Assembly: GCA_026395595.1 (NCBI GenBank)
Contig: JAPLYL010000001.1
Span: 6,174-70,173 of the forward strand
Direction of reading: 5' to 3'
DNA: 64,000 bases
DNA from: Candidatus Parcubacteria bacterium
GTDB taxonomy: Bacteria > Patescibacteriota > Minisyncoccia > Phycocordibacterales > CAIJYI01
Translations under genes and position numbers: made by a program
Part shown: piece after piece, positions 1,511 to 61,569 of the stretch
Layout of the letters: every line of letters starts with the position of its first letter
How positions within the stretch are numbered: the first letter of the stretch is position 1
Notes under the pieces: generated by a model
Databases searched by the model: none
The model's input: only the letters and a program-made list of their open reading frames with translations
What the model was told of the DNA's origin: nothing

Positions 1511-4192
1511 TTAACCGCCGGAACCGTTACACATCCAAACATAGTTTGCCATTGAGTCGGTGGTGTCAAAGAATGTTCCTCTTACGCAAGTATTATTAAC
1601 GGAAGTATTGCATAGCCCGTTAACAAGCGAAGTTACTGCAATTGTATCTGTTTGCCCGAGATAAGTAGCCGTAACCGTAGCCGTATTCGCGCTTTTTCCA
1701 ACAATCCACCCCTTATCTGTAATCGTATTCGTAACCGTAGCGACCCCAGCGGCGCTACTTGTCCAATTTGAAGACATGGTTACATCGATTGCCCCCGGAT
1801 GAGAAGAGCATTTAGCGCCAACTCCATACCATCCAATAGCCTGTATTCCCGTCTCTCCTACAGCAACAGTGGTCGTGAATGGACAAATAACAAATGTTGC
1901 CACATTTACCGTAAAAGGCACCCACTCAGAGGTGGCAGGATCTGTTACGCTGTTATCTTTTGTTCTTACTTTAAAAGTATAGGCACCCGAAGTGGCCCAA
2001 GTATGAGCCGTTTCTTGTATGGTTGCAGGAGTAACATATCCTGATACTGGAATAATTCCATCGGATACTCCATCGTCATTCCAATCAAATTGGTAGTATA
2101 CGTTATTTCCTTCTGTATCAGGGGCAGAATGAACATAAAAACCAACTGATTGCCCTTTACTCACCGTAATAGGCGAACCATTTCCTGAAAGGTTGGTAAT
2201 AATCGGAGGCTGAGCAGTGTTAGGAAGTATGGTTACTGTTACTGAGTCACTAACGGAAACACCAATCGAATTTGAACAGGTCATAGTGTAAGTGGTACTA
2301 GTGGTTATACCTCCGGGAGTAATTCCGGTGGAATTACTCCGATTTCTTGTCGTACTATTCCATTCAGTATCACCCGAAGAAACGCATGGATATTCAGAGT
2401 TAGTAGACGACCATGTAAGCACCGTGCTGTTTCCGGAAATGACAGAAGTCGGTGTAGCTGTAAGAGTAACGGTTGGATTCGGAACAACGGTCACTGTGAC
2501 AGACGCGCTAGCGTTGACACCTGCGGAATTGTGGCAAGTAAGAGTGGACCACTTGAGAATGGTGTTCGTTCCCGTTGCGATAGAAGATGGTGTTGCCGTA
2601 AGACTCACGGTTGGCGGCGCGACGCAAGCGCTTCCATCCCATGCATATCCAGTATTGCAGGAGAATTCACATTTCGCGACGGTATTAGGATCAGCGTAAG
2701 AGTAGTTAGTGGCGACTATAAGTCCGGTGAGATTAGTGCCGGTGTAAGCAGTTCCATTTGTTGGGACCGTTCCTCCACAGACGTATGGGTCTCTTGATGC
2801 GCTGCAAGAAGCAGTGTTGCCAGTGTTTACGCCAGTACAAGTCCATGTAGCGCTAGAACCAGCAGTCGGGAATGTTGGGAGAAAACCAGTTCCTGCTGAA
2901 CAAGCGGTATCAATACCAAAAGAAGTAACGCTTGAAGCATATGCTTTGTTGTTAGCCGTTCCACAAGCACCGTTGACCGGGATAAGAGCGGTTACTGTTA
3001 CTGAGTCGCTAGCGGAAACACCAACAGAATTGGAACAAGTAAGGGTGTAGGTAGTATCTGCAGTAACGACAGAACTAACTCCGGTAGCGTTATTGAGATT
3101 GCGAGTATTTCCTGTCCAGCCGCCAGTAGAAGTACAAGGATAAACACCACCAGTAGACGACCAAGTAAGCAAAGTACTATTCCCTGTAACAACAGAAGTC
3201 GGCGCAGCCGTAAGAGTAACGGTTGGATTCGGAACAACGGTAACTGTTGCGGAAGCGCTGGCAGTAACGCCGGCTGAATTATGACACGTAAGGGTGTAGG
3301 TGGTGGTTGTAGTGATACCGGTGACAGAATTCCCTGTTGTCAGATTTGATTTTATCTTTGTTCCGCTCCACGTTCCGCCTGATGCGGTACAGCTTGTGTT
3401 ATCAGAGACATTGGTAGTATCCCAAGTAAGGAGAGTGCTTCCATTCGGAGAGATAGAAGATGGTGTTGCCGTAAGACTCACGGTTGGCGGCGCGACGCAA
3501 GCGCTTCCATCCCATGCATATCCAGTATTGCAGGAGAATTCACATTTCGCGACGGTATTAGGATCAGCGTAAGAGTAATTAGTGGCGACTATAAGTCCGG
3601 TGAGATTAGTGCCGGTGTAAGCAGTTCCATTTGTTGGGACCGTTCCTCCACAGACGTATGGGTCTCTTGAAACAGTACAAGAAGCATTCGTTCCAGTATT
3701 TATGCCATTACACGACCAAGTAGCAGTGGAACCTGCGGCGGGAAAAGTTGGTAGAGAACCAGTTCCAGAAGAACAAGCCGTATCAACACCATAAGAGGTA
3801 ATCGTAGAAGCATACGTTTTGTTGTGAGCCGTACCGCAAACGCCGTTTACCGGGATAAGAGCGGTTACGATCACCGAACCGCTAGCGGAAACACCAACAG
3901 AGTTGGAACAAGTAAGGGTGTACGTTTTGTTCGCATTAACAACCAAACTGACCCCAGTACTATTAGAGCGGCTCCGGCTGGTGCTATTCCAGTCGGTTGA
4001 CCCAGAAGAAGTGCAGGCACCGGTCGTATTGGTTGACGACCATGTAAGCACCGTGCTGTTTCCGGAAATGACAGAAGTCGGTGTAGCTGTAAGAGTAACG
4101 GTTGGATTCGGAACAACGGTCACTGTGACAGACGCGCTAGCGTTGACACCTGCGGAATTGTGGCAAGTAAGAGTGCCAAATATGCTCCGCAA
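1511..4192 (-). CDS. Large secreted repeat protein with Ig-like (Big_2/PKD-like) modules and ~290-aa internal tandem repeats. The reading frame is separated from its probable signal peptide by a frameshift at an A7 tract; possibly phase-variable or a pseudogene.
   Basis: The 893-aa ORF has a repeated module TLTCHNSAGVxASASVTVTVVPNPTVTLTATPTSV...TWSST (3 copies) and a Cys-rich module VCGGTVPTNGTAYTGTNLTGLIVATNYSYADPNTVAKCEFSCNTGYAWDGSACV (2 copies). The C-terminal region resembles Big_2. The ORF begins at TTG with no signal peptide in frame. Confidence 0.75.
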   Translation of the reverse strand: MRSIFGTLTCHNSAGVNASASVTVTVVPNPTVTLTATPTSVISGNSTVLTWSSTNTTGACTSSGSTDWNSTSRSRSNSTGVSLVVNANKTYTLTCSNSVGVSASGSVIVTALIPVNGVCGTAHNKTYASTITSYGVDTACSSGTGSLPTFPAAGSTATWSCNGINTGTNASCTVSRDPYVCGGTVPTNGTAYTGTNLTGLIVATNYSYADPNTVAKCEFSCNTGYAWDGSACVAPPTVSLTATPSSISPNGSTLLTWDTTNVSDNTSCTASGGTWSGTKIKSNLTTGNSVTGITTTTTYTLTCHNSAGVTASASATVTVVPNPTVTLTAAPTSVVTGNSTLLTWSSTGGVYPCTSTGGWTGNTRNLNNATGVSSVVTADTTYTLTCSNSVGVSASDSVTVTALIPVNGACGTANNKAYASSVTSFGIDTACSAGTGFLPTFPTAGSSATWTCTGVNTGNTASCSASRDPYVCGGTVPTNGTAYTGTNLTGLIVATNYSYADPNTVAKCEFSCNTGYAWDGSACVAPPTVSLTATPSSIATGTNTILKWSTLTCHNSAGVNASASVTVTVVPNPTVTLTATPTSVISGNSTVLTWSSTNSEYPCVSSGDTEWNSTTRNRSNSTGITPGGITTSTTYTMTCSNSIGVSVSDSVTVTILPNTAQPPIITNLSGNGSPITVSKGQSVGFYVHSAPDTEGNNVYYQFDWNDDGVSDGIIPVSGYVTPATIQETAHTWATSGAYTFKVRTKDNSVTDPATSEWVPFTVNVATFVICPFTTTVAVGETGIQAIGWYGVGAKCSSHPGAIDVTMSSNWTSSAAGVATVTNTITDKGWIVGKSANTATVTATYLGQTDTIAVTSLVNGLCNTSVNNTCVRGTFFDTTDSMANYVWMCNGSGG
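2290..4190 (-). repeat. Intragenic tandem DNA repeats (period ~870 nt) within the surface-protein gene.
   Basis: Near-identical ~120-nt blocks at 2581-2700 and 3451-3580. Identical spurious antisense ORF peptides recur (2292..2699 vs 3300..3572; 2305..2487 vs 3871..4116). Confidence 0.7.
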
Positions 4193-5305: not shown

Positions 5306-5656
5306 TTACACTCGAGGGTAAACGATATTTACCCCCTGTGGTCCGTCATAATTTCCGAGAGTATTTTGCATAAAACCGATAATTCCCCAAATAGTAATGA
5401 GAACAAACAAAGCGACCACCCCCCATACCATGATATTTTTTCCTTTTTCGTTGGCGTTTTTATCCTCTTGATTAAGGAGAAATAAAGCTAATCCGTAAAA
5501 GAAGGCAACAAAAGCAAGAGTTCCGAAGATATTTATGAGGGATAATGTTACCGATAAAAACATATCAAGAGTCGTTCCAAGAGTAGTAAAACCAGAGACA
5601 GCAAAAGGAACAAAAGAGAGACTGCCTATAAAAAATAAAAGCATGTTTTTTTTCAT
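5306..5656 (-). CDS. VirB2/TrbC-like (T4SS pilin-like) small membrane protein, paralog 1.
   Basis: 116 aa. Signal peptide, hydrophobic helix FFYGLALFLL, a charged loop (EDKNANEKGK), then MVWGVVALFVLITIWGIIGFMQNT. This is a typical two-helix pilin architecture and is near-identical in its C-terminus to paralog 3. Confidence 0.55.
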   Translation of the reverse strand: MKKNMLLFFIGSLSFVPFAVSGFTTLGTTLDMFLSVTLSLINIFGTLAFVAFFYGLALFLLNQEDKNANEKGKNIMVWGVVALFVLITIWGIIGFMQNTLGNYDGPQGVNIVYPRV

Positions 5657-5729
5657 AGGTTAATTATAACAACGGTTCAATAAAAAAACAAACCGCCATA
5701 ATGACAGTTTGTTTTTTTCTAAATTTTTA

Positions 5730-6002
5730 CTAATTTGAGGGGATAGAGACTCCTTCTGGTAACGTAATGCCAAAAGTTCCAATAATGAGTCTCATGATCC
5801 CAAAAACACTGATCATGATAAACATTCCCAAAAGACCCCACACCATATGCCTCTGTCCTATGGCACGATCGGCAGGACTGCCGGCGATATAATATCTTGT
5901 CATTCCATAAAGGAACAAAATAGTCGCGAGAACGAACAAGAACCCAATAAAAGGATTGAGGATATAGGTGTTTATCTTCAAAAGAAGCTGATCAATGTTC
6001 AT
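5730..6002 (-). CDS. VirB2/TrbC-like small membrane protein, paralog 2.
   Basis: 90 aa with an ATG start at 6002. Motif FLYGMT...HMVWGLLGMFIMISVFGI. Confidence 0.5.
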   Translation of the reverse strand: MNIDQLLLKINTYILNPFIGFLFVLATILFLYGMTRYYIAGSPADRAIGQRHMVWGLLGMFIMISVFGIMRLIIGTFGITLPEGVSIPSN

Positions 6003-6022
6003 AAAACGGTAATTTCAGTCTC

Positions 6023-6421
6023 TTAGATAGTGATATTAATGAGTCCGCCACCGGTGGTATTGCTCGGGGTAACGTCAGGAAGAGTAAGAGTCTGTGTTCC
6101 GGTCGGTCCTCCGACATTTCCAATAGTGTTCTGCATAAAACCGATAATTCCCCAAATGGTTACCATAACAAACAAAGCGAGAACGCCCCAGATCATGATG
6201 CTTTTTCCTTCCTTGGCTTTGTCTTCATCTCCGGCTGCCAAAACGTACATGGCCAATCCCCAGAAGAAGAATACAACGACGAGAGTGGAAACAATCGGAA
6301 CAAGCATATTGACGATAGTTCCCACCAATCCGACAAGACCCTGCAAATTTCCCGCTGTATTTTGAGCGGAAGCGATAAATGGCGCAGCAAACGCACCGAG
6401 TACTATGAGTATTTTTTTCAT
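6023..6421 (-). CDS. VirB2/TrbC-like small membrane protein, paralog 3.
   Basis: ATG at 6421 (MKKILIVLGAFAAPFIASAQ signal peptide). Motif FFFWGLAMYVLAAGDEDKAKEGKSIMIWGVLALFVMVTIWGIIGFMQNT, ending in a Gly/Thr-rich tail. Confidence 0.55.
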   Translation of the reverse strand: MKKILIVLGAFAAPFIASAQNTAGNLQGLVGLVGTIVNMLVPIVSTLVVVFFFWGLAMYVLAAGDEDKAKEGKSIMIWGVLALFVMVTIWGIIGFMQNTIGNVGGPTGTQTLTLPDVTPSNTTGGGLINITI

Positions 6422-6545
6422 ATGAAAAATGTTATACCTTATAATTTTAATAAATAAAAAGAATGAATACACATTCTATTCTCTTTAATTGTATCAGATA
6501 ACGGAATGAGGGCAAATAAACGTGTGGATAAGCAAAGAAAAACGT

Positions 6546-6830
6546 TTATGAACTTGATGGCAGTTGCGGAATAAGAAGAGGAGAAAGATTAAATGTGTTC
6601 ACCAAAACTCCGACGATCCCCCACAAAGTGAACATCACAAAAATTGCAACAATGCTCCACATCATCCATGCCTTTCCTTTCGTCCTTTTATCATCATCAC
6701 TAGTGTTGAAGATAAAAACAACGATTCCATAGAAAAACGCGGCAAAGGCGGCGGCAAAGAGCAACCCCATAGCCTTGGCGATAAGCCCGATAAAAAGATT
6801 CATAATGTCTTGAAAATTGGTCGGTGCCAT
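6546..6830 (-). CDS. VirB2/TrbC-like small membrane protein, paralog 4.
   Basis: 94 aa. Motif FFYGIVVFIFNTSDDDKRTKGKAWMMWSIVAIFVMFTLWGIVGVLVNT. Confidence 0.5.
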   Translation of the reverse strand: MAPTNFQDIMNLFIGLIAKAMGLLFAAAFAAFFYGIVVFIFNTSDDDKRTKGKAWMMWSIVAIFVMFTLWGIVGVLVNTFNLSPLLIPQLPSSS

Positions 6831-6860
6831 ATAGTTTAGTTTAGATAATAAAAGTAGTAT

Positions 6861-7292
6861 TTAACCGGTGGGCCCTCCTATCTGCGCGATCGTCCCGACA
6901 ATGGCATTCGCCAAAAGCCACGAACCGAAAAGAACCGCCGTTCCGATAACCGCCCACAGAAAAGCATTTTTTGCAGAGGTGAGTTTCGTTTCATTTCCTT
7001 GCGCGGTGAGAAAAAGAAATCCGGAATAAAGAATAAAGAACGTGGCAACAGGAACGCCTATTTGCAAAAGAATACGAAGAACACTCTGAATAAATTCGGG
7101 TAAAGAGTGAATATTCGGAGTAATCGGTTCAGCCGCCAAGTTTATTTTTGGAGGAGAATCGGCAAAAACTGATACGCCAGTAGAAAGTAACAAAACAACA
7201 AAAGCACCAACTCCAAATGTTCCGGACGGGGGTACAACCCCCGTCCGGCGACGAGCGATGGCTCTCTTTTCATTTGTCATTTCGTTTTTCAT
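6861..7292 (-). CDS. VirB2/TrbC-like small membrane protein, paralog 5 (longer N-terminal region).
   Basis: 143 aa. Motif FILYSGFLFLTAQGNETKLTSAKNAFLWAVIGTAVLFGSWLLANAIVGTIAQIGGPTG, with a C-terminal GG as in VirB2. Confidence 0.5.
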   Translation of the reverse strand: MKNEMTNEKRAIARRRTGVVPPSGTFGVGAFVVLLLSTGVSVFADSPPKINLAAEPITPNIHSLPEFIQSVLRILLQIGVPVATFFILYSGFLFLTAQGNETKLTSAKNAFLWAVIGTAVLFGSWLLANAIVGTIAQIGGPTG

Positions 7293-7455
7293 TGGAAATT
7301 TGAAATTTTATTACCCCCCCATCGACCCAATCGTATTTTGAAAAACTTTTAAGGTGTTTATATATTGATTTAATTATATCATATCAATAAAAATTTCGAC
7401 GAAGTTTATCCACAGAGTTGCACGTACTTGTTGAATGTAGCAAACGAATACTTGA

Positions 7456-7488
7456 CTTAACATAAGTTATATGTTAACTTATGTTAAG
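7456..7488. promoter_or_regulatory. Inverted repeat (11-bp arms CTTAACATAAG / CTTATGTTAAG, 11-nt spacer) overlapping a TTGACT -35-like hexamer. Candidate operator/promoter for the small plus-strand ORF.
   Basis: The arms are perfectly complementary and lie about 120 nt upstream of the ATG at 7606. Confidence 0.35.
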
Positions 7489-7681
7489 TTTGTTTTTGGG
7501 GTTATCTCAAAAAAAAGAATGGTTTCTTTGAAGTTTTTTTAATAAAACGATAAATTTCATTAGAAATTTTAACTCTACAAAGTGAAAATTCACAAGAGGC
7601 ATACAATGATTAATTCAGAATACTACCACAACAAAGGCGAACAAGATGGGGTAGAAGGGCCTTGTAGCTACGATCCCCCCA

Positions 7682-7849
7682 ATGAAAAACTTTGATTTTG
7701 ACTTTGACTACAAAGAAGATTACGATGCGGGGTGGTCTTATGCCAGAGGTCAGTATGATTATAATAATGATTGCGGATACAAACCCCAAGGCAATGAAGA
7801 ATCATACGACGAGGGCTGGGAAAACGCAAAAGAACAAGATGACGACTAG
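7682..7849 (+). CDS. Small acidic Tyr/Asp/Gly-rich protein (MKNFDFDFDYKEDYDAGWSYARGQYDYNNDCGYKPQGNEESYDEGWENAKEQDDD). The upstream ORF 7606..7695 (MINSEYYHNKGEQDGVEGPCSYDPPNEKL) is probably its frameshifted N-terminus.
   Basis: Hand-translated, below the ORF-track size cut-off. It is the only plus-strand gene inside the minus-strand pilin array and is followed by a clean terminator. The two ORFs overlap at a C6 tract (7675-7680), and deleting one C fuses them. Confidence 0.45.
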   Translation: MKNFDFDFDYKEDYDAGWSYARGQYDYNNDCGYKPQGNEESYDEGWENAKEQDDD

Positions 7850-7862
7850 ATAGTTAAGCTGT

Positions 7863-7892
7863 GACCACAATTGAAAAATTGTGGTCTTTTTA
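7863..7892 (+). terminator. Rho-independent terminator (stem GACCACAATT/AATTGTGGTC, loop GAAAA, T5).
   Basis: A perfect 10-bp stem followed by TTTTT on the plus strand. Confidence 0.65.
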
Positions 7893-7908
7893 TATTTCCC
7901 TATTGCAT

Positions 7909-8244
7909 TTACCCACCAAGCTGACCGATAGTGTTTTTAACAATCGTTGCTACAATGATGGCGGACAATATGACTATGGCTCCGATAAAGCTTCCGACGA
8001 GCCACCCTCTCGCTATTTTTAACTTCCCAGGGTCGCCGCTTGCGGATACAAACAGATATCCGGTCCAAATAAAGGCGAGCGTAATAACGGGGATGCTGAT
8101 TCGTATCACGATATTCAACATCGCGGTTACGAATTCAAACAGCGTCCCCACTGCAGGCGTCGGAGAGGTAAGTTTGGTTACTCCTTGTGCAAAAGATACG
8201 AGGGGTAACAAATAAAGCGCGGTGATGTAAAAAAACTTTCTCAT
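7909..8244 (-). CDS. VirB2/TrbC-like small membrane protein, paralog 6.
   Basis: 111 aa. Signal peptide, then FIWTGYLFVSASGDPGKLKIARGWLVGSFIGAIVILSAIIVATIVKNTIGQLGG. Confidence 0.5.
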   Translation of the reverse strand: MRKFFYITALYLLPLVSFAQGVTKLTSPTPAVGTLFEFVTAMLNIVIRISIPVITLAFIWTGYLFVSASGDPGKLKIARGWLVGSFIGAIVILSAIIVATIVKNTIGQLGG

Positions 8245-10180: not shown

Positions 10181-10200
10181 GAATACTGTGGAAAGCTTGC

Positions 10201-10254
10201 CGGAGAATACACAGGACTACCCTGTGTACACAGGGTAGTCCTGTGTATTCTCCG
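10201..10254. repeat. Perfect 54-bp palindrome CGGAGAATACACAGGACTACCCTGTGTA|CACAGGGTAGTCCTGTGTATTCTCCG, built from nested TACACAGG/CCTGTGTA units around a central TGTACA.
   Basis: Exact reverse-complement symmetry read from the sequence. It lies between the methyltransferase start and the uvrC stop, with no flanking T-tract. Confidence 0.8.
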
Positions 10255-10411
10255 CCAGACGTGGGTGACCTAATTTTGACCTAAATTTTAATGACCGAAG
10301 GGAATATAAAATTGGAAATGCTCTTGTGGTAAAAGAAGCGAAGCGACTATTAAAATGAAAATACTCCTATAGTGCTCTGACCCCGGCGGCGGATCGAGTA
10401 AATGTTGAAAC

Positions 10412-11614
10412 CTACATCTTCCCTCTTAATTTTTTGTGATACGCAATCGCGAACCGATGGGCTTCGCTGTTGCCGAGGAGTATTTCTTTTTCGTGCAAAC
10501 GCGCGAGTTTCTGGTCTCCGATAATGTTACGCGGCCGATGATGTTCGTCTTTGACCACGCCGAGAACCGGGATGGTATAGCCATACTTTTCAAGCAACCG
10601 ATCCGCCACATTTTTCTGTGCCAAACCGCCGTCAACGATGATCATTTTCGGAAAAGGCCATTCAGAGTGTTCAAGACGGCGAGATAACATTTCGCCAAGA
10701 TTTTTAGTGTCATTTACTCCTTCTCCTTTTATTTTGAATTTCCGGTATTCGCTTTTCTTCGGTTCGCCATTTTCCACAACCGTCATCACTCCCACCATAA
10801 AAGCCCCGCTTATATGAGCCACATCATAACATTCTATCCTTATTTCACTTGGCGGTTTCACCGTCAAGTGATTATTGCGTTTTAATAAAGAAACATCTTG
10901 AATATGAGAAAGAGCGAAGATCGTTTTTTTCACTTCGTTTGCTTTTTCAAATTCTTCTTTAACGGCAAAAGTTTTCATTTCTCTTTCCAGTTTTCCGATA
11001 AGGCTTTTTTTCTTGCCTTGGAAAAAAAGCGCGATGTTTTTTATATTTTTCGCGTACTCTTTTTTAGATACGGCGCCGGAACAAACGCCTGGACACAGTC
11101 CGATTTGCGCATTAAAACAAGGTTTTCCAGAATTCGGGGTACAAGTATCACGAAAAGAGAAAATCTTTCGCACGATTTTCATCGCTTCTTTTAACTGCCC
11201 GCCGTGAATAAACGGCCCGAAAAAGTAGGCGTACTTTTCAGGTTCCAACACTCTTTCTCTTACGAGAAGAACCCTCGGGTATTCTTCTTTAGTAATAACC
11301 ACATAATTCCAAGTTTTATCGTCTTTGAGGTCGGTATTGTGCTTCGGCTGGTATTTTCTGATAAGTTCCGCTTCCAGAATAAGCGCTTCCAAAACGGAAT
11401 CAGTTTGTTCATAATCCACTTTTACTGCCAAATCCAGCATTTGTGCGATAATAGGTCCGCGAGTCGTCAAAATATCCTTGCTGAAATAGCTCCGAACGCG
11501 GTCGCGCAGAGACGTTGCTTTTCCGATATACAGAATAGTCCCGCGGGTATCCTTAAAAAAATACACGCCAGGTGTATCGGGTAATTTCTTGATCTGTTCC
11601 GTTAAGGTTGACAT
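10412..11614 (-). CDS. uvrC: Excinuclease ABC subunit C (short form, 400 aa).
   Basis: GIY-YIG motif (GVYFFKDTRGTILYIGKATSLRDRVRSYF), a UvrBC-interaction region and an RNase-H-like endonuclease region (IECYDVAHISGAFMVGVMTV). Start set at ATG 11614 (MSTLTEQIKKLPDTPGVYFF). Confidence 0.8.
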   Translation of the reverse strand: MSTLTEQIKKLPDTPGVYFFKDTRGTILYIGKATSLRDRVRSYFSKDILTTRGPIIAQMLDLAVKVDYEQTDSVLEALILEAELIRKYQPKHNTDLKDDKTWNYVVITKEEYPRVLLVRERVLEPEKYAYFFGPFIHGGQLKEAMKIVRKIFSFRDTCTPNSGKPCFNAQIGLCPGVCSGAVSKKEYAKNIKNIALFFQGKKKSLIGKLEREMKTFAVKEEFEKANEVKKTIFALSHIQDVSLLKRNNHLTVKPPSEIRIECYDVAHISGAFMVGVMTVVENGEPKKSEYRKFKIKGEGVNDTKNLGEMLSRRLEHSEWPFPKMIIVDGGLAQKNVADRLLEKYGYTIPVLGVVKDEHHRPRNIIGDQKLARLHEKEILLGNSEAHRFAIAYHKKLRGKM

Positions 11615-12004: not shown

Positions 12005-12061
12005 CATTGATAATTCTAGAACCTGAATCCGAAAACCCAATTTTTCCGCACAAAACCCAGT

Positions 12062-12140
12062 TCGTCATCCCGTGCAGGGACACGGGATCCACGTAAGAGG
12101 TGTTAACGACGTGGATACCGGGTCAAGCCCGGTATGACGA
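12062..12140 (+). repeat. E-element copy 1. Structured GC-rich element: closing helix TCGTCAT/ATGACGA enclosing three hairpins (CCCGTG/CACGGG; CCACG-16 nt-CGTGG; ACCGGG/CCCGGT) joined by AT dinucleotides. Candidate four-way-junction ncRNA or MITE core.
   Basis: Read directly from the sequence. The same architecture occurs at 15533-15603 and 60139-60215 with compensatory stem changes. Flanked by the imperfect inverted repeat TTCTAGAACCTGAATC (12014-12029) / GATTCACAGTCTAGAA (12154-12169). Confidence 0.6.
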
Positions 12141-12171
12141 CGGGTAGTTTTCAGATTCACAGTCTAGAAAC

Positions 12172-14213: not shown

Positions 14214-15446
14214 TTACTTCCAAGCGTTAAGGATGGAAACCGCCTTTTCCAGTTGACGATCTTTCTTGTTGTTGATATCTTCCTGCGTCACCTTCACTTC
14301 ATATTGAGGCATAATTCCTTTATCGGAAATGGAATTGCCGTTCGGTGTAAGCCACTGCGCTACCGTAACTTTCAAAAAGGTATTTCCGGGAAGCGGGACT
14401 AATTCTTGTACACACCCCTTGCCAAAAGTTTTACTTCCCACCAGTTTTGCTTTTCCGTGTTCGGAAAGCGCCCCGGCAAATATCTCCGAAGCAGAAGCGG
14501 ATCCTCCGTCTACGAGAATGACAAAGCGCAGATTATCGGTAAATATGTCATATCCGCGGCTACGGTGAGCCAATCCGGGCCCTTTATCGCCATAATCTTC
14601 TTTCACAATCAAAGAACCCGCAGGGAGAAACCAACTCGCCATATCAACAGCGGCATCCAAATAACCGCCGGGATTTCCACGAAGATCCAGCAAGAGTTTA
14701 TTGTGATTGGGATTATTATCAGCAAAAGCGACAAATTCACGCAAAGCATTACGGAAAAGCGTCGGGGAAGTCTCCGTGAAGCTAAAAAGTCGTATGACAA
14801 AGATACCGTCATCTCTCTCTTCGGTTTCAATGGTCGGAACTTCAATGTTCCCGCGAACAACAGAAACGACAATCGGTTCTTTTGCGTCTTCGCGAAGCAG
14901 TGTTAATTTTACCGTAGACCCTCCCTTTCCTCGGATAAGTTTTACCGCTTCTTCAGGACTCATTTCTGCCGAGACTTTGTCGTCTATTTTTAATATCTTA
15001 TCCCCGGGGAGAATGCCCGCTTTTTTAGCTGGAGAACCCTTTAAAGGAGAAACAACCGTTAAGACTTTTTGGCGCGTGCCAATCTCCATTCCAACTCCTT
15101 CAAAGCTTCCCGCGATATCTCCGGCAAAGACAGAAGCTTCACTCGGCGGCATGAAAAAAGTATAAGGGTCGTCATAGGAAGCAGCGAGTCCTTGAATAGC
15201 GCCGTAAACTTTTTGTTGATTGGTGGTTGAGGCGGAATATATATATTTCTCGTTCAAAATATCCCATGCCTGCCAAAAAGTGGAAAAATCCGCAAGTACC
15301 AAATTTTTCGGATCTTTATTAGACACCTCTGCTACTTTTCCTGCAGAAGGGCCAAGATGAAGTCCGATAAAAATCCCCAGAAAAACCGACGCTCCGACAG
15401 TAAGAAGCGCCGAAAGCGAAAAAATTATTTTTGTTTTGCGTGTCAT
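14214..15446 (-). CDS. Carboxyl-terminal processing protease (S41 family, PDZ domain).
   Basis: N-terminal TM anchor, a PDZ-like region, and the catalytic region LLLDLRGNPGGYLDAAVDMASWF typical of S41 Ctp/Prc. Confidence 0.85.
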   Translation of the reverse strand: MTRKTKIIFSLSALLTVGASVFLGIFIGLHLGPSAGKVAEVSNKDPKNLVLADFSTFWQAWDILNEKYIYSASTTNQQKVYGAIQGLAASYDDPYTFFMPPSEASVFAGDIAGSFEGVGMEIGTRQKVLTVVSPLKGSPAKKAGILPGDKILKIDDKVSAEMSPEEAVKLIRGKGGSTVKLTLLREDAKEPIVVSVVRGNIEVPTIETEERDDGIFVIRLFSFTETSPTLFRNALREFVAFADNNPNHNKLLLDLRGNPGGYLDAAVDMASWFLPAGSLIVKEDYGDKGPGLAHRSRGYDIFTDNLRFVILVDGGSASASEIFAGALSEHGKAKLVGSKTFGKGCVQELVPLPGNTFLKVTVAQWLTPNGNSISDKGIMPQYEVKVTQEDINNKKDRQLEKAVSILNAWK

Positions 15447-15532
15447 TGCAGTAAATTATCTCAAAAATATCGTTTCCGGTCAACCGAACTTCAGGGATAA
15501 CTTTCCGTCAAAAGCAACTGCTCACACCAATA

Positions 15533-15603
15533 TCGTCATTGCGGGCTTGACCCGCAATCCACGGCTAAACGACGTGGATTCTGATTTTCATCAGAATGAC
15601 GAC
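15533..15603 (+). repeat. E-element copy 3 (TCGTCAT | TGCGGG-CCCGCA | AT | CCACG-gctaaacga-CGTGG | AT | TCTGAT-ATCAGA | ATGACGA). It is flanked by an 11-bp inverted repeat and a direct repeat, a MITE-like signature.
   Basis: Inverted repeat GCAACTGCTCA (15514-15524) / TGAGCAGTTAC (15646-15656). Direct repeat CCGTCAAAA (15505-15513) / CCGTCAAAAAA (15656-15666). Confidence 0.6.
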
Positions 15604-15792
15604 GAACGAGTTATTGCGTTTTTTCCGGTTAAAAAATAAGTGGTATGAGCAGTTACCGTCAAAAAACTGGACAGAAATAAATTCACGTGATGCTGTTTGA
15701 ACAGCCATATTCCATGGCTCTTTGAAATCCACGGGTGGAAAGCGTGACGCTTTTCATCTTTCAATACGGCGTGACGCCGAGGGATAACACCA

Positions 15793-16116
15793 ATGAAAAC
15801 ACAGCTAGATATTATGCAAGAACAACAGCATCATGGTCACGGAACAGCGACAATGCCACAGACAAAGATTGATGCTTTTTTGGAGGAATTTCCGCTTGTT
15901 CGCCATTACTTAAAAGATGCTCCGATAAAACAAGTGTATGTTTCCAAAATTGAGCCGGCACTTCTTGGCTATTCCCCAAGATTAGTGAACATCGCTCCTT
16001 TTTGGAAAATCCGTCCCGATTGGCAAGAAGAGCAAATTATCTTTTTTGACGAAGGCGGAAACGCTCTCCATGAGATAAAACTGGGGGTTAAAAAGAGGGT
16101 TCACTTAAATGTATGA
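15793..16116 (+). CDS. Hypothetical small protein (107 aa), first gene of an overlapping pair.
   Basis: ORF with an ATGA overlap to the next ORF. No family recognised. Confidence 0.5.
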   Translation: MKTQLDIMQEQQHHGHGTATMPQTKIDAFLEEFPLVRHYLKDAPIKQVYVSKIEPALLGYSPRLVNIAPFWKIRPDWQEEQIIFFDEGGNALHEIKLGVKKRVHLNV

Positions 16117-30012: not shown

Positions 30013-30020
30013 GTTTTTAT

Positions 30021-30127
30021 AAAATTTCCAATTACCAATTTCAAATTTCCAATAAAAATCCAAATTTGATATAAAACGTCATTTCTTTCGTTCGTTTGGA
30101 AATTTGAAATTAGATATTTGAAATTTT
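30021..30127. repeat. AT-rich inverted repeat (~31-bp arms built from TTGGAAATT/GAAATTG units) immediately 5' of the pgi start codon. The proximal arm is near-identical to the dnaG leader.
   Basis: Arm 30021-30053 is the reverse complement of arm 30096-30127, with about 3 mismatches. Confidence 0.6.
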
Positions 30128-30134
30128 TTATTAA

Positions 30135-31370
30135 CTATCCCCTTCCTCTCGCAATCATTGCTTCCGATATTCTGGAAAGAGCAATAATATATGCCGAATT
30201 CCTTACGGTTGTTTTTTTCTCATTACTGACTTTCCACACTTCATCAAAAGAAGTCCTCATGATTTTTTCCAATTTTTGAAGCACCTCTTTTTCTTCCCAA
30301 TAATACCCGTACGCGTTTTGCACCTGTTCAAAATAGGACACCGCGACACCCCCCGCATTCGTCAGAATATCAGGAAGAACCATAACATTATTTTTTTCAA
30401 ACACGATATCCGCTTCAGGAGTTACCGGCCCATTGGCGAGTTCCGCCACCAGCTTTGTTTTGAGAGTCTGCGCGTCTTTTTCCGTAACAGAGTTTTCAAG
30501 CGCGGCAGGAATAAAAATGTCAACTTCCTCTGCGAACTGTTCTGTGGAAGTAATATCTTTCGCTTTCGGATACCCAGAGAGCATTCCTTTTTCGTCTTTG
30601 TATTTGGCAACATCGTCAACGTCCAAACCCTCTTTATTTTCTATAACACCTTTAGAGTCGGAAACGGAAATAATCTTGTATCCTGCCTTCTGCATAATCA
30701 TTGCGACGTTTCTTCCCGCGTTTCCAAAGCCCTGAATGGCAACCGTCGCGCCTTTTTCAATGCCAAGTTTTTTTGCCGCAGAATCAATAACGTAAAAACC
30801 TCCTTGTGCCGTGGAATAAGAACGGGCTTTTGATCCGCCAAGAGAAAGCGGTTTTCCGGTAATGACTCCCGCCTCATGGTGTCCTCTTATCGTTTCATAT
30901 TCGTCCAGCATCCAGCTCATAATCCTTCCGTCGGTGTTGACATCCGGAGCGGGCACATCAACACGATCGCCGATAATACCGGAAACGGCGCGGATATAAC
31001 CGCGGGAAAGTCTTTCCAGTTCTCCGACAGAAAGTTCTTTCGGATTTACGATGATACCGCCCTTTCCCCCTCCAAGAGGAATATCCACCACCGCGCATTT
31101 GAATGCCATCCATGCAGAAAGCGCTTTTACTTCGCCGATATTAACGTTTTGATGAAACCGAATTCCTCCTTTAAACGGCCCGCGCGCATCGTTATATTGA
31201 GACCGATACCCGGTGAAAACTTTCACTTCACCATTGTCCATTTTAACAGGAATGGATACCTCTAAAAAACGCTTCACCGACAACATTTGCCGATAGATAT
31301 TTTCAGGAATATCTAAAAACTGTCTCGTACCTTCTATCTGTCGTAAAAACTTATCAAATTCGTTTTGCAT
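30135..31370 (-). CDS. Glu/Leu/Phe/Val dehydrogenase family, paralog 2.
   Basis: GGGKGGIIVNPKELS and GFGNAG motifs. Start at ATG 31370 (MQNEFDKFLRQIEG). Confidence 0.85.
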   Translation of the reverse strand: MQNEFDKFLRQIEGTRQFLDIPENIYRQMLSVKRFLEVSIPVKMDNGEVKVFTGYRSQYNDARGPFKGGIRFHQNVNIGEVKALSAWMAFKCAVVDIPLGGGKGGIIVNPKELSVGELERLSRGYIRAVSGIIGDRVDVPAPDVNTDGRIMSWMLDEYETIRGHHEAGVITGKPLSLGGSKARSYSTAQGGFYVIDSAAKKLGIEKGATVAIQGFGNAGRNVAMIMQKAGYKIISVSDSKGVIENKEGLDVDDVAKYKDEKGMLSGYPKAKDITSTEQFAEEVDIFIPAALENSVTEKDAQTLKTKLVAELANGPVTPEADIVFEKNNVMVLPDILTNAGGVAVSYFEQVQNAYGYYWEEKEVLQKLEKIMRTSFDEVWKVSNEKKTTVRNSAYIIALSRISEAMIARGRG

Positions 31371-43510: not shown

Positions 43511-43513
43511 GAT

Positions 43514-43550
43514 TTTTAAAATTTCCAATTTTCAATTTCTAATTTCCAAA
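43514..43550 (-). promoter_or_regulatory. Conserved AT-rich leader (TTTGGAAATTAGAAATTGAAAATTGGAAATTTTAAAAATC-ATG), about 35 of 40 nt identical to the pgi leader.
   Basis: Direct comparison with 30013-30053 on the same (minus) strand. Confidence 0.55.
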
Positions 43551-58182: not shown

Positions 58183-60132
58183 ATGAAAAATGAAAATGCT
58201 AACCACTTCGCAGAAGGAATGATCACGATTACCGCCAAAGGAATAGGCTATGTGAAAGTTGACGATTCCGAACAAGAAGATATTGAAATCGGACAAATGT
58301 TTTTGAACACCGCGCTTCACGGCGACCGCGTGCGGGTTTTTCTGCATCCGGAAAAAGAAGGCCAGCGGCAGACCGGCGAAGTGACCGAAATTCTTTTGCG
58401 CGGAAAAATGACGTTTATCGGAAAAATTGAAAGAAAAGGAAATCTTGTTTTTCTCGTTGCCGATGACCGCCATATGTATACCGATATCTATATTCCCCAC
58501 GAAAAATCACAAGACGCCCAGAATGGACAAAAAGCTTTCGTCAGGATCATTGACTGGACCAATCCGAAGAAAAATCCGTCCGGAGAGGTTATAAAAGTCA
58601 TCGGAAATCCGGGAGAACACGAAACGGAAATTGAGGCGATTATCTTGGAAAAAGGTTTTGAACTCGGTTTTACTCCTGAAGTTTTGGCGAACGCGGAAAG
58701 TATCAGCGGGATAATTACCGCGGAAGAAATCGCAAAAAGAAGAGATATGAGGGCTATTACGACTTTCACGATTGATCCGTTTGACGCCAAAGACTTTGAC
58801 GACGCCATTTCTTTTGAAACTCTGCCGAATGGCGACTATGAAATCGGCGTGCATATCGCCGACGTTTCTCATTTTGTCACTCCGGGCACAGCACTAGACA
58901 AAGAAGCGCGGCTCCGCGGAACTTCCGTCTATCTCGTTGACCGATGTATCCCCATGCTTCCCGAACGTCTTTCCAACGACCTCTGCAGTTTAAAACCGAA
59001 CGAAGACCGTCTGGCTTTTTCCGCTATTTTTACCGTGGACAAAAATTGCGTCAAAGAAGGAACGCATGTTGAAGTGAAAAAACAGTGGTTCGGAAAAACC
59101 GTCATCCATTCTGACCGCCGTTTTACTTACGAAGAAGCGCAGGAAGTTTTGGAAGGAAAACAGGGTGGTTATCCGGAAGAACTGCTCGCCCTGAACGCCA
59201 TCGCAAAAAACATGACGAAGGCTCGCTACCAAGAAGGAGCCATCTCTTTTGAACAGGACGAAATAAAGATTATTTTGGATGAAAATGGCGTACCCGTAAA
59301 GATTATCAAGAAACAGAGAAAGGACGCTCACAAGCTCGTGGAAGAGTTCATGTTGCTCGCAAATAAAAAAGTGGCGGAATATATCGCGCATATCGGAAAA
59401 GCGGAAGAAAAATTGTTCGTCTATCGTATCCATAACGAGCCGGACAAAGAACGCATCAGAACGCTCGCGGTATTTTTAAAAACGCTCGGCTTCACTCTGA
59501 AATTGGACGAAAACGGAGGAGTTTCCACCAGAGACTTGAATGATATTTTAAGCGCGACCGAAGGCGGGCCTTTTCACAACCTCGTACATACCTCGGCGCT
59601 CCGCACGATGTCCAAGGCTATTTATTCTACCAAAAATGTCGGACACTACGGTCTCGGTTTTGAACATTACACGCACTTCACTTCCCCGATACGAAGATAC
59701 CCGGACGTTCTTTCTCACCGCCTGCTTTTCGCGCATCTCAAACAAGAAGAAATTCCCGATTCCGCGTGGCATGATTATGAAGCGATGCTCGTCTACGCGA
59801 CGGAACGCGAGATATTCGCTACAGACGCCGAACGCGCTTCCATCAAATGGAAACAAGTGCAGTATATGGAGACCAAAGTCGGACAAGAATTTGAAGCGAC
59901 TATCACGGGCGTTACCGAATGGGGCATTTACGTAGAAGAAAAAGAAACTCGTTCCGACGGAATGATCCGCATGAGAGATCTTTCCGACGACTTCTATATT
60001 TTGGACGAAAAGAATTACTGTCTTATCGGCAAAAACAAGAAGAAGAAGTACGCCCTCGGTGATGTACTGAAAGTGAAGCTCACCAAAGCGAATGTTGAAG
60101 ATCGGCAATTAGACTTCGCTGTTATTTCATAA
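58183..60132 (+). CDS. rnr: Ribonuclease R (RNB-family 3'-5' exoribonuclease with a C-terminal S1 domain).
   Basis: Cold-shock-like N-terminus, the RNB catalytic region (ITFTIDPFDAKDFDDAISFE) and a C-terminal S1. ATG at 58183 (MKNENANHF); the ORF-track start at 58126 is an alternative codon. Confidence 0.9.
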   Translation: MKNENANHFAEGMITITAKGIGYVKVDDSEQEDIEIGQMFLNTALHGDRVRVFLHPEKEGQRQTGEVTEILLRGKMTFIGKIERKGNLVFLVADDRHMYTDIYIPHEKSQDAQNGQKAFVRIIDWTNPKKNPSGEVIKVIGNPGEHETEIEAIILEKGFELGFTPEVLANAESISGIITAEEIAKRRDMRAITTFTIDPFDAKDFDDAISFETLPNGDYEIGVHIADVSHFVTPGTALDKEARLRGTSVYLVDRCIPMLPERLSNDLCSLKPNEDRLAFSAIFTVDKNCVKEGTHVEVKKQWFGKTVIHSDRRFTYEEAQEVLEGKQGGYPEELLALNAIAKNMTKARYQEGAISFEQDEIKIILDENGVPVKIIKKQRKDAHKLVEEFMLLANKKVAEYIAHIGKAEEKLFVYRIHNEPDKERIRTLAVFLKTLGFTLKLDENGGVSTRDLNDILSATEGGPFHNLVHTSALRTMSKAIYSTKNVGHYGLGFEHYTHFTSPIRRYPDVLSHRLLFAHLKQEEIPDSAWHDYEAMLVYATEREIFATDAERASIKWKQVQYMETKVGQEFEATITGVTEWGIYVEEKETRSDGMIRMRDLSDDFYILDEKNYCLIGKNKKKKYALGDVLKVKLTKANVEDRQLDFAVIS

Positions 60133-60138
60133 AACTTC

Positions 60139-60215
60139 CGTCATTCCGGACGAGATCCGGAATCCATAAGTTCGAGCACCCGCCCTGGATCCCGGGTCGC
60201 GGCCCGGGATGACGA
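60139..60215 (+). repeat. E-element copy 2 (CGTCAT | TCCGGA-cgaga-TCCGGA | AT | CCA-taag...-TGG | AT | CCCGGG-tcgcgg-CCCGGG | ATGACGA), 7 nt after the rnr stop.
   Basis: Same architecture and junction nucleotides as the copies at 12062 and 15533. The stems differ but remain complementary. Confidence 0.6.
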
Positions 60216-60258: not shown

Positions 60259-60777
60259 ATGAAAGAAGAAAACAAAGAAGCAAAAATAACATCTCCGTTG
60301 GAAGAAGCTTCCATAAAAGCAACACAATGGATAGGCACTCCTTTTTCTCTCGTGGTTCATACGGTATTTTTCATCGGAATTTTTTTCCTGAAAAATTTCG
60401 GATTTTCTACCGAAGAGATACTTCTTATTTTAACCACCGCCGTATCTCTGGAAGCAATATATTTGGCTATTTTCATTCAGATGACCATTAACAGGCAAGA
60501 AGCAAAACTCCACGAAGTCCGTGAAGACATTGAAGAACTCGGCGAGGATGTTGAAGAAATCGGAAAAGACGTTGATGAACTATCCGAAGACGTTGAAGAG
60601 ATAGGAAAAGACGTTGATGAACTCGGCGAAGACTTTGAAGAGATAACGGAAGACATGGAAGAAGATGAGAAAAAAGAGGAAGCCTATCGTTCCGAAAGAA
60701 ACAAAAATCTGCAAAAAATAGAAACCACTCTGCAGTCGCTGATTATAGAGTTGGAAAAAATGAAAGAGAAGAAATAG
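60259..60777 (+). CDS. Membrane protein with two TM helices and an acidic coiled-coil tail containing a tandem 13-aa (39-nt) repeat EDVEEIGKDVDEL (DUF1003-like architecture).
   Basis: 172 aa. The TM helices are VVHTVFFIGIFFL and LLILTTAVSLEAIYLAIFIQ, followed by two exact repeat copies. Confidence 0.5.
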   Translation: MKEENKEAKITSPLEEASIKATQWIGTPFSLVVHTVFFIGIFFLKNFGFSTEEILLILTTAVSLEAIYLAIFIQMTINRQEAKLHEVREDIEELGEDVEEIGKDVDELSEDVEEIGKDVDELGEDFEEITEDMEEDEKKEEAYRSERNKNLQKIETTLQSLIIELEKMKEKK

Positions 60778-60793
60778 ATAACAAACAACAAAA

Positions 60794-60830
60794 AAAACAC
60801 TTGGCGGTTTCACCGCCAAGTGTTTTTTTG
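60794..60830. terminator. Bidirectional terminator (AACACTTGGCGG tttca CCGCCAAGTGTT + T7).
   Basis: A perfect 12-bp stem flanked by A- and T-runs. Confidence 0.7.
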
Positions 60831-61212: not shown

Positions 61213-61569
61213 TTATTGTTTTTCTAATATCTCCACCCGACGGACAATCCCGTTAAATTCATTTCGGTGTACGGTTTCATCAAGACTTAAAACGGTACCG
61301 AGTTGTTTTTTATCAATAGAAGCAAGCCTGCGGTTGGTTTCTTTTTGTTCTTCCTCTATCGAGTAAACTCTTTGCTTGATGAAAGAAACGTCATCTTTTA
61401 ATGAAGAAACGTCGCCTTTTAGTAAAGAAACGTCGCTCTTCAACGAAGAAACGTCGCCCTTGACTGAGGATATTTCCGACTCTATTTTTTCAAATCCGTT
61501 CATGGTAAATACAGCGAGCTTTTCAATAAGCTCCCCAAGTTTTTCCAACGTCATTTTTTCCTTTTTCAT
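61213..61569 (-). CDS. Small coiled-coil protein with 7-aa tandem repeats (DVSSLKG-like, ~4 copies). Paralog of 51893..52204.
   Basis: Shares conserved N- and C-terminal blocks with its paralog. The middle region is encoded by 21-nt tandem repeats (GAAGAAACGTCGCC...). Confidence 0.6.
   Translation of the reverse strand: MKKEKMTLEKLGELIEKLAVFTMNGFEKIESEISSVKGDVSSLKSDVSLLKGDVSSLKDDVSFIKQRVYSIEEEQKETNRRLASIDKKQLGTVLSLDETVHRNEFNGIVRRVEILEKQ

Follow-up and report, generated by a model that had tools for sequence, protein, structure and literature searches.

We identified the 143-bp segment at positions 15514-15656 of the window (the whole 64-kb stretch of Parcubacteria DNA analysed here) as an ISBst12-type MITE of the IS66 family, flanked by an 8-bp duplication, moved by a DDE transposase supplied in trans, and holding a REP dimer inside; we place the probability of this reading at roughly 87%. 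The element, given here on the plus strand, has no ORF of its own and is missing as one block from two relatives. Its assignment rests on ends that match those of ISDge4 and of a metagenomic insertion sequence described below, and on the 8-bp duplications typical of the family. It adds to kinds of repeat that are already known, as a MITE of the ISBst12/IS66 type with a CGTC REP dimer inside it, in the genome of a CPR bacterium.

The segment is bounded by the inverted repeats GCAACTGCTCA (15514-15524) and TGAGCAGTTAC (15646-15656), which are complementary at 10 of 11 positions. The pairing continues inward to about 18 nt (15/18), giving a left terminal inverted repeat GCAACTGCTCACACCAAT (15514-15531, plus strand) and a right one, AGTGGTATGAGCAGTTAC (15639-15656, plus strand), that reads GTAACTGCTCATACCACT as its reverse complement. 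A direct repeat, CCGTCAAAA, occupies 15505-15513 and 15656-15664. Of 3000 shuffles of the flanks, 7.8% produced an inverted repeat that was 11 nt or longer and had no more than one mismatch, and none (0/3000; analytic expectation about 1e-6) produced an inverted repeat abutted by an 8-bp direct repeat. Therefore, the composite signature of inverted plus direct repeat is real and far beyond chance. The repeat strings that the sequence-only reading had quoted around this copy, which it placed at 15533, are all present at those positions, and its interpretation of the direct repeat as a target-site duplication stands in all but length. The duplication most likely comprises the 8 bp CGTCAAAA, with a left copy at 15506-15513 and a right copy at 15657-15664, instead of 9 bp; the ninth base, a C, would be the element’s own terminal base, because family members end in ...GTTAC.

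The element sits between two divergent genes, ctpA (S41 peptidase, 14214-15446, minus strand) and a 107-aa ORF (orf107). In the closest relative found (L122, GCA_026395575.1), whose CtpA is 95% identical, the corresponding site is uninterrupted, reads ...GGGATAACTTTCCGTCAAAAAACTGGACA... and has one CCGTCAAAA; by comparison, the window has exactly 151 extra bases at this point. A second relative (L170, GCA_943355145.1), with a CtpA that is 96% identical, also has an uninterrupted site, with a single CTTTCAAAA. The 8-bp CGTCAAAA is present in single copy at both empty sites, and 8 bp is the length typical of the element family. The sequence-only reading had taken the unit for a transposed element with terminal inverted repeats and a target-site duplication, and had proposed looking in related genomes without it for a single-copy target; the two empty sites, together with the ISBst12/IS66 type of the ends, bear this out. 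In more distant relatives (L126, L123 and L125, about 75% identical) the intergenic region is short and contains neither the unit nor ISBst12-type ends nor a REP. We propose that the insertion is recent and postdates the split from the relatives with 95-96% identical CtpA. The insertion point is 22 bp upstream of a putative ctpA promoter (TTGACC-17-GATAAT with an upstream TG, 15455-15483, minus strand), which is recognised by consensus match only, is conserved in sequence among the relatives, and was left intact.

The ends of the element connect it to a transposase family. Read as its reverse complement, the right end of the window element, GTAACTGCTCA, is identical at 11 of 11 positions to the ISDge4 terminal inverted repeat GTAACTGCTCAGCA, and the left end matches at 10 of 11. 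ISDge4 is a member of the ISBst12 group (IS66 family) from Deinococcus geothermalis; it encodes a 449-aa transposase, has been observed experimentally to transpose, has GTGACTACTCAGCA and GTAACTGCTCAGCA as its TIRs, and generates an 8-bp direct repeat (PMC12898284). The left end of the window element begins with GC, not GT, as do those of the metagenomic elements L155, L156 and L160. The window element is therefore like members of the ISBst12 group (ISDge4, and ISBst12 itself from Geobacillus stearothermophilus) in its terminal sequence GTAACTGCTCA and its 8-bp duplication, but differs from them in being only 143 bp long, in having no transposase, and in having a REP-dimer interior instead of IS sequence. 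A limited literature search found no paper naming both ISBst12 and MITE, and IS66 is not mentioned in a 2024 review of prokaryotic MITEs (PMC10969869).

Scanning metagenomes for two such ends 98-128 nt apart identified 40 loci, of which about 7 would be expected by chance on a rough estimate for a collection taken to hold about 5e11 bases. Many of these loci are obvious MITEs, with termini of the form G[T/C]AACTGCTCA[C/T]A...T[G/A]TGAGCAGTTAC. Among approximately 20 distinct small elements with G[TC]...[AG]C termini, the flanking duplications matched at 8/8 positions in 10, at 7/8 in 3 and at 6/8 in 2, and an offset control reached at most 6/8. In L139 and L148, identical elements sit at separate loci, each with a duplication of its own, which points to recent activity. 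The scan also tied the ends to a protein: a 1426-bp metagenomic element (L130, 5616-7041) has the same ends, has GTAACTGCTCACAA on both sides (GTAACTGCTCACAA...TTGTGAGCAGTTAC), and contains a single 448-aa ORF that matches PF03050 DDE_Tnp_IS66 (E = 1.2e-32). A search of viral contigs found no relatives of this transposase. On the same metagenomic sequence, a 134-bp MITE (5474-5607) lies 8 bp away from the 1426-bp ISBst12-type IS, with ends alike; elsewhere (L152, 4794-5069) the same MITE is present in two tandem copies with a common duplication, TCCCATAA.

As the 143-bp element has no transposase, it must be mobilised in trans. An ISBst12-group DDE transposase supplied in this way would have bound both ends (G[C/T]AACTGCTCA...), and the ends would have been joined to 8-bp staggered cuts in the divergent ctpA / orf107 intergenic region, after which gap repair would have duplicated CGTCAAAA. 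The ends, duplication and empty sites were each observed directly, as were the association of such ends with an IS66-family transposase and the identity of the core as a REP, and we infer in addition that the transposase acted in trans in this genome. The window itself contains no IS66-family or other transposase by tblastn with the L130 protein or by Pfam on ORFs of at least 85 aa, and it has only one pair of ISBst12-type ends. Among the 40 loci from the metagenome scan there is no sibling copy whose interior is the same.

The interior of the element contains one copy of a repeat that we call the E-element. There are exactly three E-elements in the window (12063-12139, 15534-15601 and 60139-60214), all of them dimers, with no singletons. 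Each copy consists of two inverted half-units, and each half-unit is laid out as CGTC, an 8-bp stem starting with AT, a loop of 4-6 nt, the return stem and a CCA tail. This layout is uniform in the window: the CGTC tag stands beside the stem, the stem has 8 bp (AT + 6), and the CCA tail (CCACG, CCATA or CCAGG) follows in 6/6 half-units, with loops of 4-6 nt. The copy inside the MITE reads CGTCAT...ATGACG and divides into a left unit (15534-15563), a spacer (15564-15572) and an inverted right unit (15573-15601), with a predicted four-way junction fold; folded as single-stranded DNA, the E-elements form an outer stem and three hairpins (z = -5.3 to -6.7). The published definition of CGTC REPs specifies a CGTC tag, a stem of 8-9 bp starting with A-T, T-A pairs, a loop of 4-5 nt, a CCA tail and occurrence as inverted dimers (Di Nocera 2013, PMC3733652). 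Judged by its sequence, which matches this definition feature for feature, the E-element is a CGTC-tagged REP dimer.

Among the matches listed (one genome per species), Bradyrhizobium, Rhodopseudomonas, Xanthobacteraceae, Microvirga and others carry dimers of identical architecture. In a set of 67 distinct half-units, pairing at stem positions 3-9 is kept in 88-100% of cases, and several types of pair are seen at each position; because pairing persists despite this variety, the hairpins have been kept through compensatory change. Between two dimers of the window, the right half of the 12063 copy (12110-12140) and the left half of the 15534 copy (15533-15563) match at 27 of 31 positions and have a common loop, GGGCTTGACCC, which is also common among the alphaproteobacterial matches; their stem bases differ by compensatory changes (TACC/GGTA vs TTGC/GCAA). 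CGTC REPs have been listed in 5 phyla, mostly in Alphaproteobacteria (PMC3733652), where their dimers are abundant; here they are found in a CPR bacterium, and Patescibacteria go unmentioned in a 2025 REP survey. The window dimers are like the described CGTC-1 to CGTC-4 REPs (Di Nocera, De Gregorio and Rocco 2013), which include Neisseria dRS3 and Rickettsia RPE-4/6, in the CGTC head, the 8-bp stem starting with AT, the 4-6-nt loop, the CCA tail, the arrangement as inverted dimers and the variability of the stems. They differ in their host, which has 42% GC and three dimers in 64 kb and which the names attached to its CtpA and RNase R homologues place in the Parcubacteria (CPR), and in the packaging of the 15534 dimer between DDE-type transposon ends.

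The other two E-elements of the window are differently placed. The copy at 12063-12139 lies inside another outer palindrome. Imperfect inverted-repeat strings had been noted previously around this copy and are present, but a better pair is formed by TGAATCCGAAAAC (12024-12036) and GTTTTCAGATTCA (12147-12159), which match at 12/13 positions (calculated chance expectation about 0.002) and are unrelated in sequence to the ISBst12 ends. Inspection of the flanks revealed no clear duplication around this copy. We considered a decayed duplication (7-bp TCTAGAA; 6/8 between ATTGATAA and CTTGACAA) and rejected it as not significant alone; L170 does not retain TCTAGAA. The same outer palindrome is found at the orthologous locus in L170, L171 and L172, with flanks 96-98% identical, around a core that is a 28-nt single CGTC hairpin, CGTCATCCTCGC-ATTC-GCGAGGATGACG, as opposed to the 77-nt dimer in the window. 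Alignment of window positions 12044-12133 with L170 4833-4878 shows the REP core exchanged in place, the alignment resuming exactly at ATGACG. Because the palindrome and flanks are kept in L170, L171 and L172, this locus is old and only its core is polymorphic. Its setting resembles that of the Halothiobacillus neapolitanus CGTC-1 and Anabaena variabilis GTAG-15 dimers, which stand between longer complementary arms. No transposon identity or duplication has been reported for those palindromes, whereas the 15534 copy has arms that can be recognised as IS ends.

The third copy (60139-60214), with CCAT/CCAG tails, immediately follows the stop codon of RNase R and lacks terminal inverted repeats. 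It is missing from relatives with an 85% identical RNase R (L127-L129), whose intergenic DNA has diverged too far for an empty site to be defined; for this reason we leave an 8-bp direct repeat around this copy, TGTTATTT, as possibly due to chance. The RNase R stop codon, TAA (60130-60132), falls between the direct repeat TGTTATTT (60120-60127) and this REP dimer. RNase R homologues that are 80-85% identical are mostly 15-45 aa longer, with one that is shorter by 1 aa; it may be that the surroundings of the dimer have remodelled the RNase R gene at its 3’ end. Two small ORFs near the dimer (60503-60663 and 61382-61465) contain 21-nt (7-aa) tandem repeats.

These copies bear on a broader suggestion of the sequence-only reading, that E-elements as a class might be the cores of 130-150-bp mobile elements. 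The generalisation does not hold: the 12063 copy lies in a different, conserved palindrome, the 60139 copy is without TIRs, and ISBst12-type ends were found within 60 nt of 0/67 alphaproteobacterial dimers. The inverted and direct repeats flanking these 67 dimers had length distributions like those in shuffled flanks, with no excess. As a class, then, E-elements are REP dimers rather than cores of MITEs, and of the three in the window only the 15534 copy is packaged in a MITE.

Several other repeats were noted in the window. A 60-nt near-perfect palindrome (10198-10257; 30-nt arms, 97% complementary, without a spacer) is intergenic and upstream of a UvrC-like gene. A 25-nt hairpin, CACTTGGCGGTTTCACCG(T/C)CAAGTG, occurs twice, inside the UvrC-like ORF (10846-10870) and after an ORF ending at 60777 (60797-60822). 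AT-rich repeats of AAATTTCCAA-like units, partly arranged as inverted pairs, are present in three intergenic places (30013-30135, 43513-43550 and 7268-7307). Among the genes, six consecutive small minus-strand ORFs (5306-8241) all match PF18895 T4SS_pilin and constitute a tandem pilin-like paralogue family, and an 893-aa ORF (2225-4175) has long internal repeats spaced about 750-880 nt apart that are 79-99% identical.

The relationship between the REP dimer and its MITE shell allows two histories. Metagenomic MITEs with ISBst12-type ends fall into subfamilies with unrelated interiors, and one group of them (L134/L164/L165, L135/L149 and L155) also bears CGTC-type hairpins. Just inward of the left end, the window element has the 12-mer ATCGTCATTGCG in common with L134 and L155; with L135 the shared stretch is a 9-mer, and against other MITE subfamilies the longest background matches are 6-9 nt. 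To the right of the dimer, a non-REP internal segment (15602-15638, plus strand) is weakly similar, and presumably homologous, to the right half of L134/L155-type MITEs. The shared 12-mer points to a CGTC unit that has long belonged to the MITE lineage, with the dimer as its cargo. Most likely, then, the REP dimer travelled as passenger DNA and was already inside the element when it moved.

Alternatively, shell and core could have separate histories, an ISBst12-type MITE having arrived first and a CGTC REP dimer having later been inserted into it or having replaced part of it by gene conversion. The 12063 locus lends this some weight: its core differs wholly between the window and the relatives (77-nt dimer vs 28-nt single hairpin) amid flanks that are 96-98% identical, which indicates that REP cores are exchangeable in place, and REP dimers inside larger palindromes are known in other species (Di Nocera 2013). 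However, L122 and L170 are without shell and core alike, with no intermediate, and the CGTC head is equally placed beside the left end in the independent L134/L155 MITEs. We consider a late arrival of the dimer unlikely on balance, though it is the strongest of the alternatives to the passenger reading. In a more speculative proposal, which we regard as doubtful, transport inside ISBst12/IS66-type MITEs may be a general route by which CGTC REPs disperse, both within a genome and from phylum to phylum as far as the CPR bacteria, and CGTC heads may be the breakpoints of core swaps. Such hitch-hiking and core swapping would, if true, account both for the TIR-plus-CGTCATTGCG junction common to unrelated metagenomic MITEs and for the dimer-versus-single-hairpin allele at the 12063 locus.

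Ordinary TGTC/CGTC REP dimers are also present on MITE-bearing metagenomic contigs (L153 782-859, L164 143-204, L167 150-237 and L135 ~1960-2008). Those in L167 and L135 are within 30-100 nt of an ISBst12-type MITE, which could reflect either co-location in intergenic DNA or a real association.

A REP housed within a MITE has a precedent, of the GTAG class, in QMITE2 of Coxiella burnetii. Like the window element, QMITE2 is a MITE (150-190 bp) with TIRs, variable 7-11-nt direct repeats and a REP core, and its truncated copies resemble plain REPs (PMC5896051; PMC10969869). It differs in that its REP core is of the GTAG type, its TIRs are 23-29 bp long and of other sequence, and no link to IS66 has been reported for it.

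The empty sites could in principle be read in the opposite direction, with an ancestral element that the relatives lost precisely when its 8-9-bp direct repeats recombined. Short direct repeats are able to mediate precise deletion, and the comparison involves just two close relatives, which could branch in more than one order. Against this, the distant relatives L126, L123 and L125 share the short intergenic region, and both copies of the duplication are still identical in the window. We therefore judge precise loss improbable, and even under it the element remains a MITE with a target duplication.

A second, still less probable possibility concerns the enzyme rather than the direction of change, namely that a REPIN-like unit was moved by an HUH/Y1 single-strand transposase (RAYT-type or IS200/IS605-type) recognising the hairpins and the CGTC tag. 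HUH transposition of the IS200/IS605 type does not depend on terminal inverted repeats and is not known to duplicate its target, whereas TIRs and a duplication are both present here and match the DDE family. REPINs are of the GTAG type, are linked to a Y1 transposase, and are not known to have TIRs or duplications. The window dimer is like the REPIN-RAYT system in that two inverted REPs form a larger hairpin, a unit regarded there as non-autonomous and mobile, but its ends and duplication indicate a DDE transposase. It is true that the core is a REP dimer, that GTAG-class REP dimers are linked to RAYTs (PMC3733652), and that the target CGTCAAAA happens to include CGTC. Yet CGTC REPs are reported to have no RAYT association, and no PF01797-type/Y1_Tnp protein (RAYT) was found among window ORFs of at least 85 aa.

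Least probable of all is the other option raised by the sequence-only reading, that the outer repeats add a helix to a larger RNA around the E-element, such as a structured sRNA or leader: the 143-nt unit does fold well (-34.8 kcal/mol, z = -6.7, computed as single-stranded DNA), but the supposed helix is a transposon end common to unrelated elements, the whole unit is absent in the close relatives L122 and L170, Rfam gave no match at gathering score over the whole window and none even at E <= 1 over 15440-15800, and both strands fold equally because the unit is palindromic. An RNA helix is thus not needed to explain the repeats, and any folding of MITE transcripts would be a by-product.

The preferred reading, of an ISBst12-type MITE with a REP dimer as cargo, makes the outer repeats transposon ends and not RNA structure. 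It provides a clean, dated insertion in a CPR (Parcubacteria) genome, in itself a fairly ordinary example of mobile DNA, which implies that an IS66-family transposase was recently active in a Parcubacteria genome. It also places CGTC-type REPs, typical of Alphaproteobacteria, in a reduced-genome CPR lineage. No dedicated transposase has been reported for the CGTC class, and the element offers one concrete route by which a CGTC REP dimer can be moved, a modest lead on how these repeats disperse.
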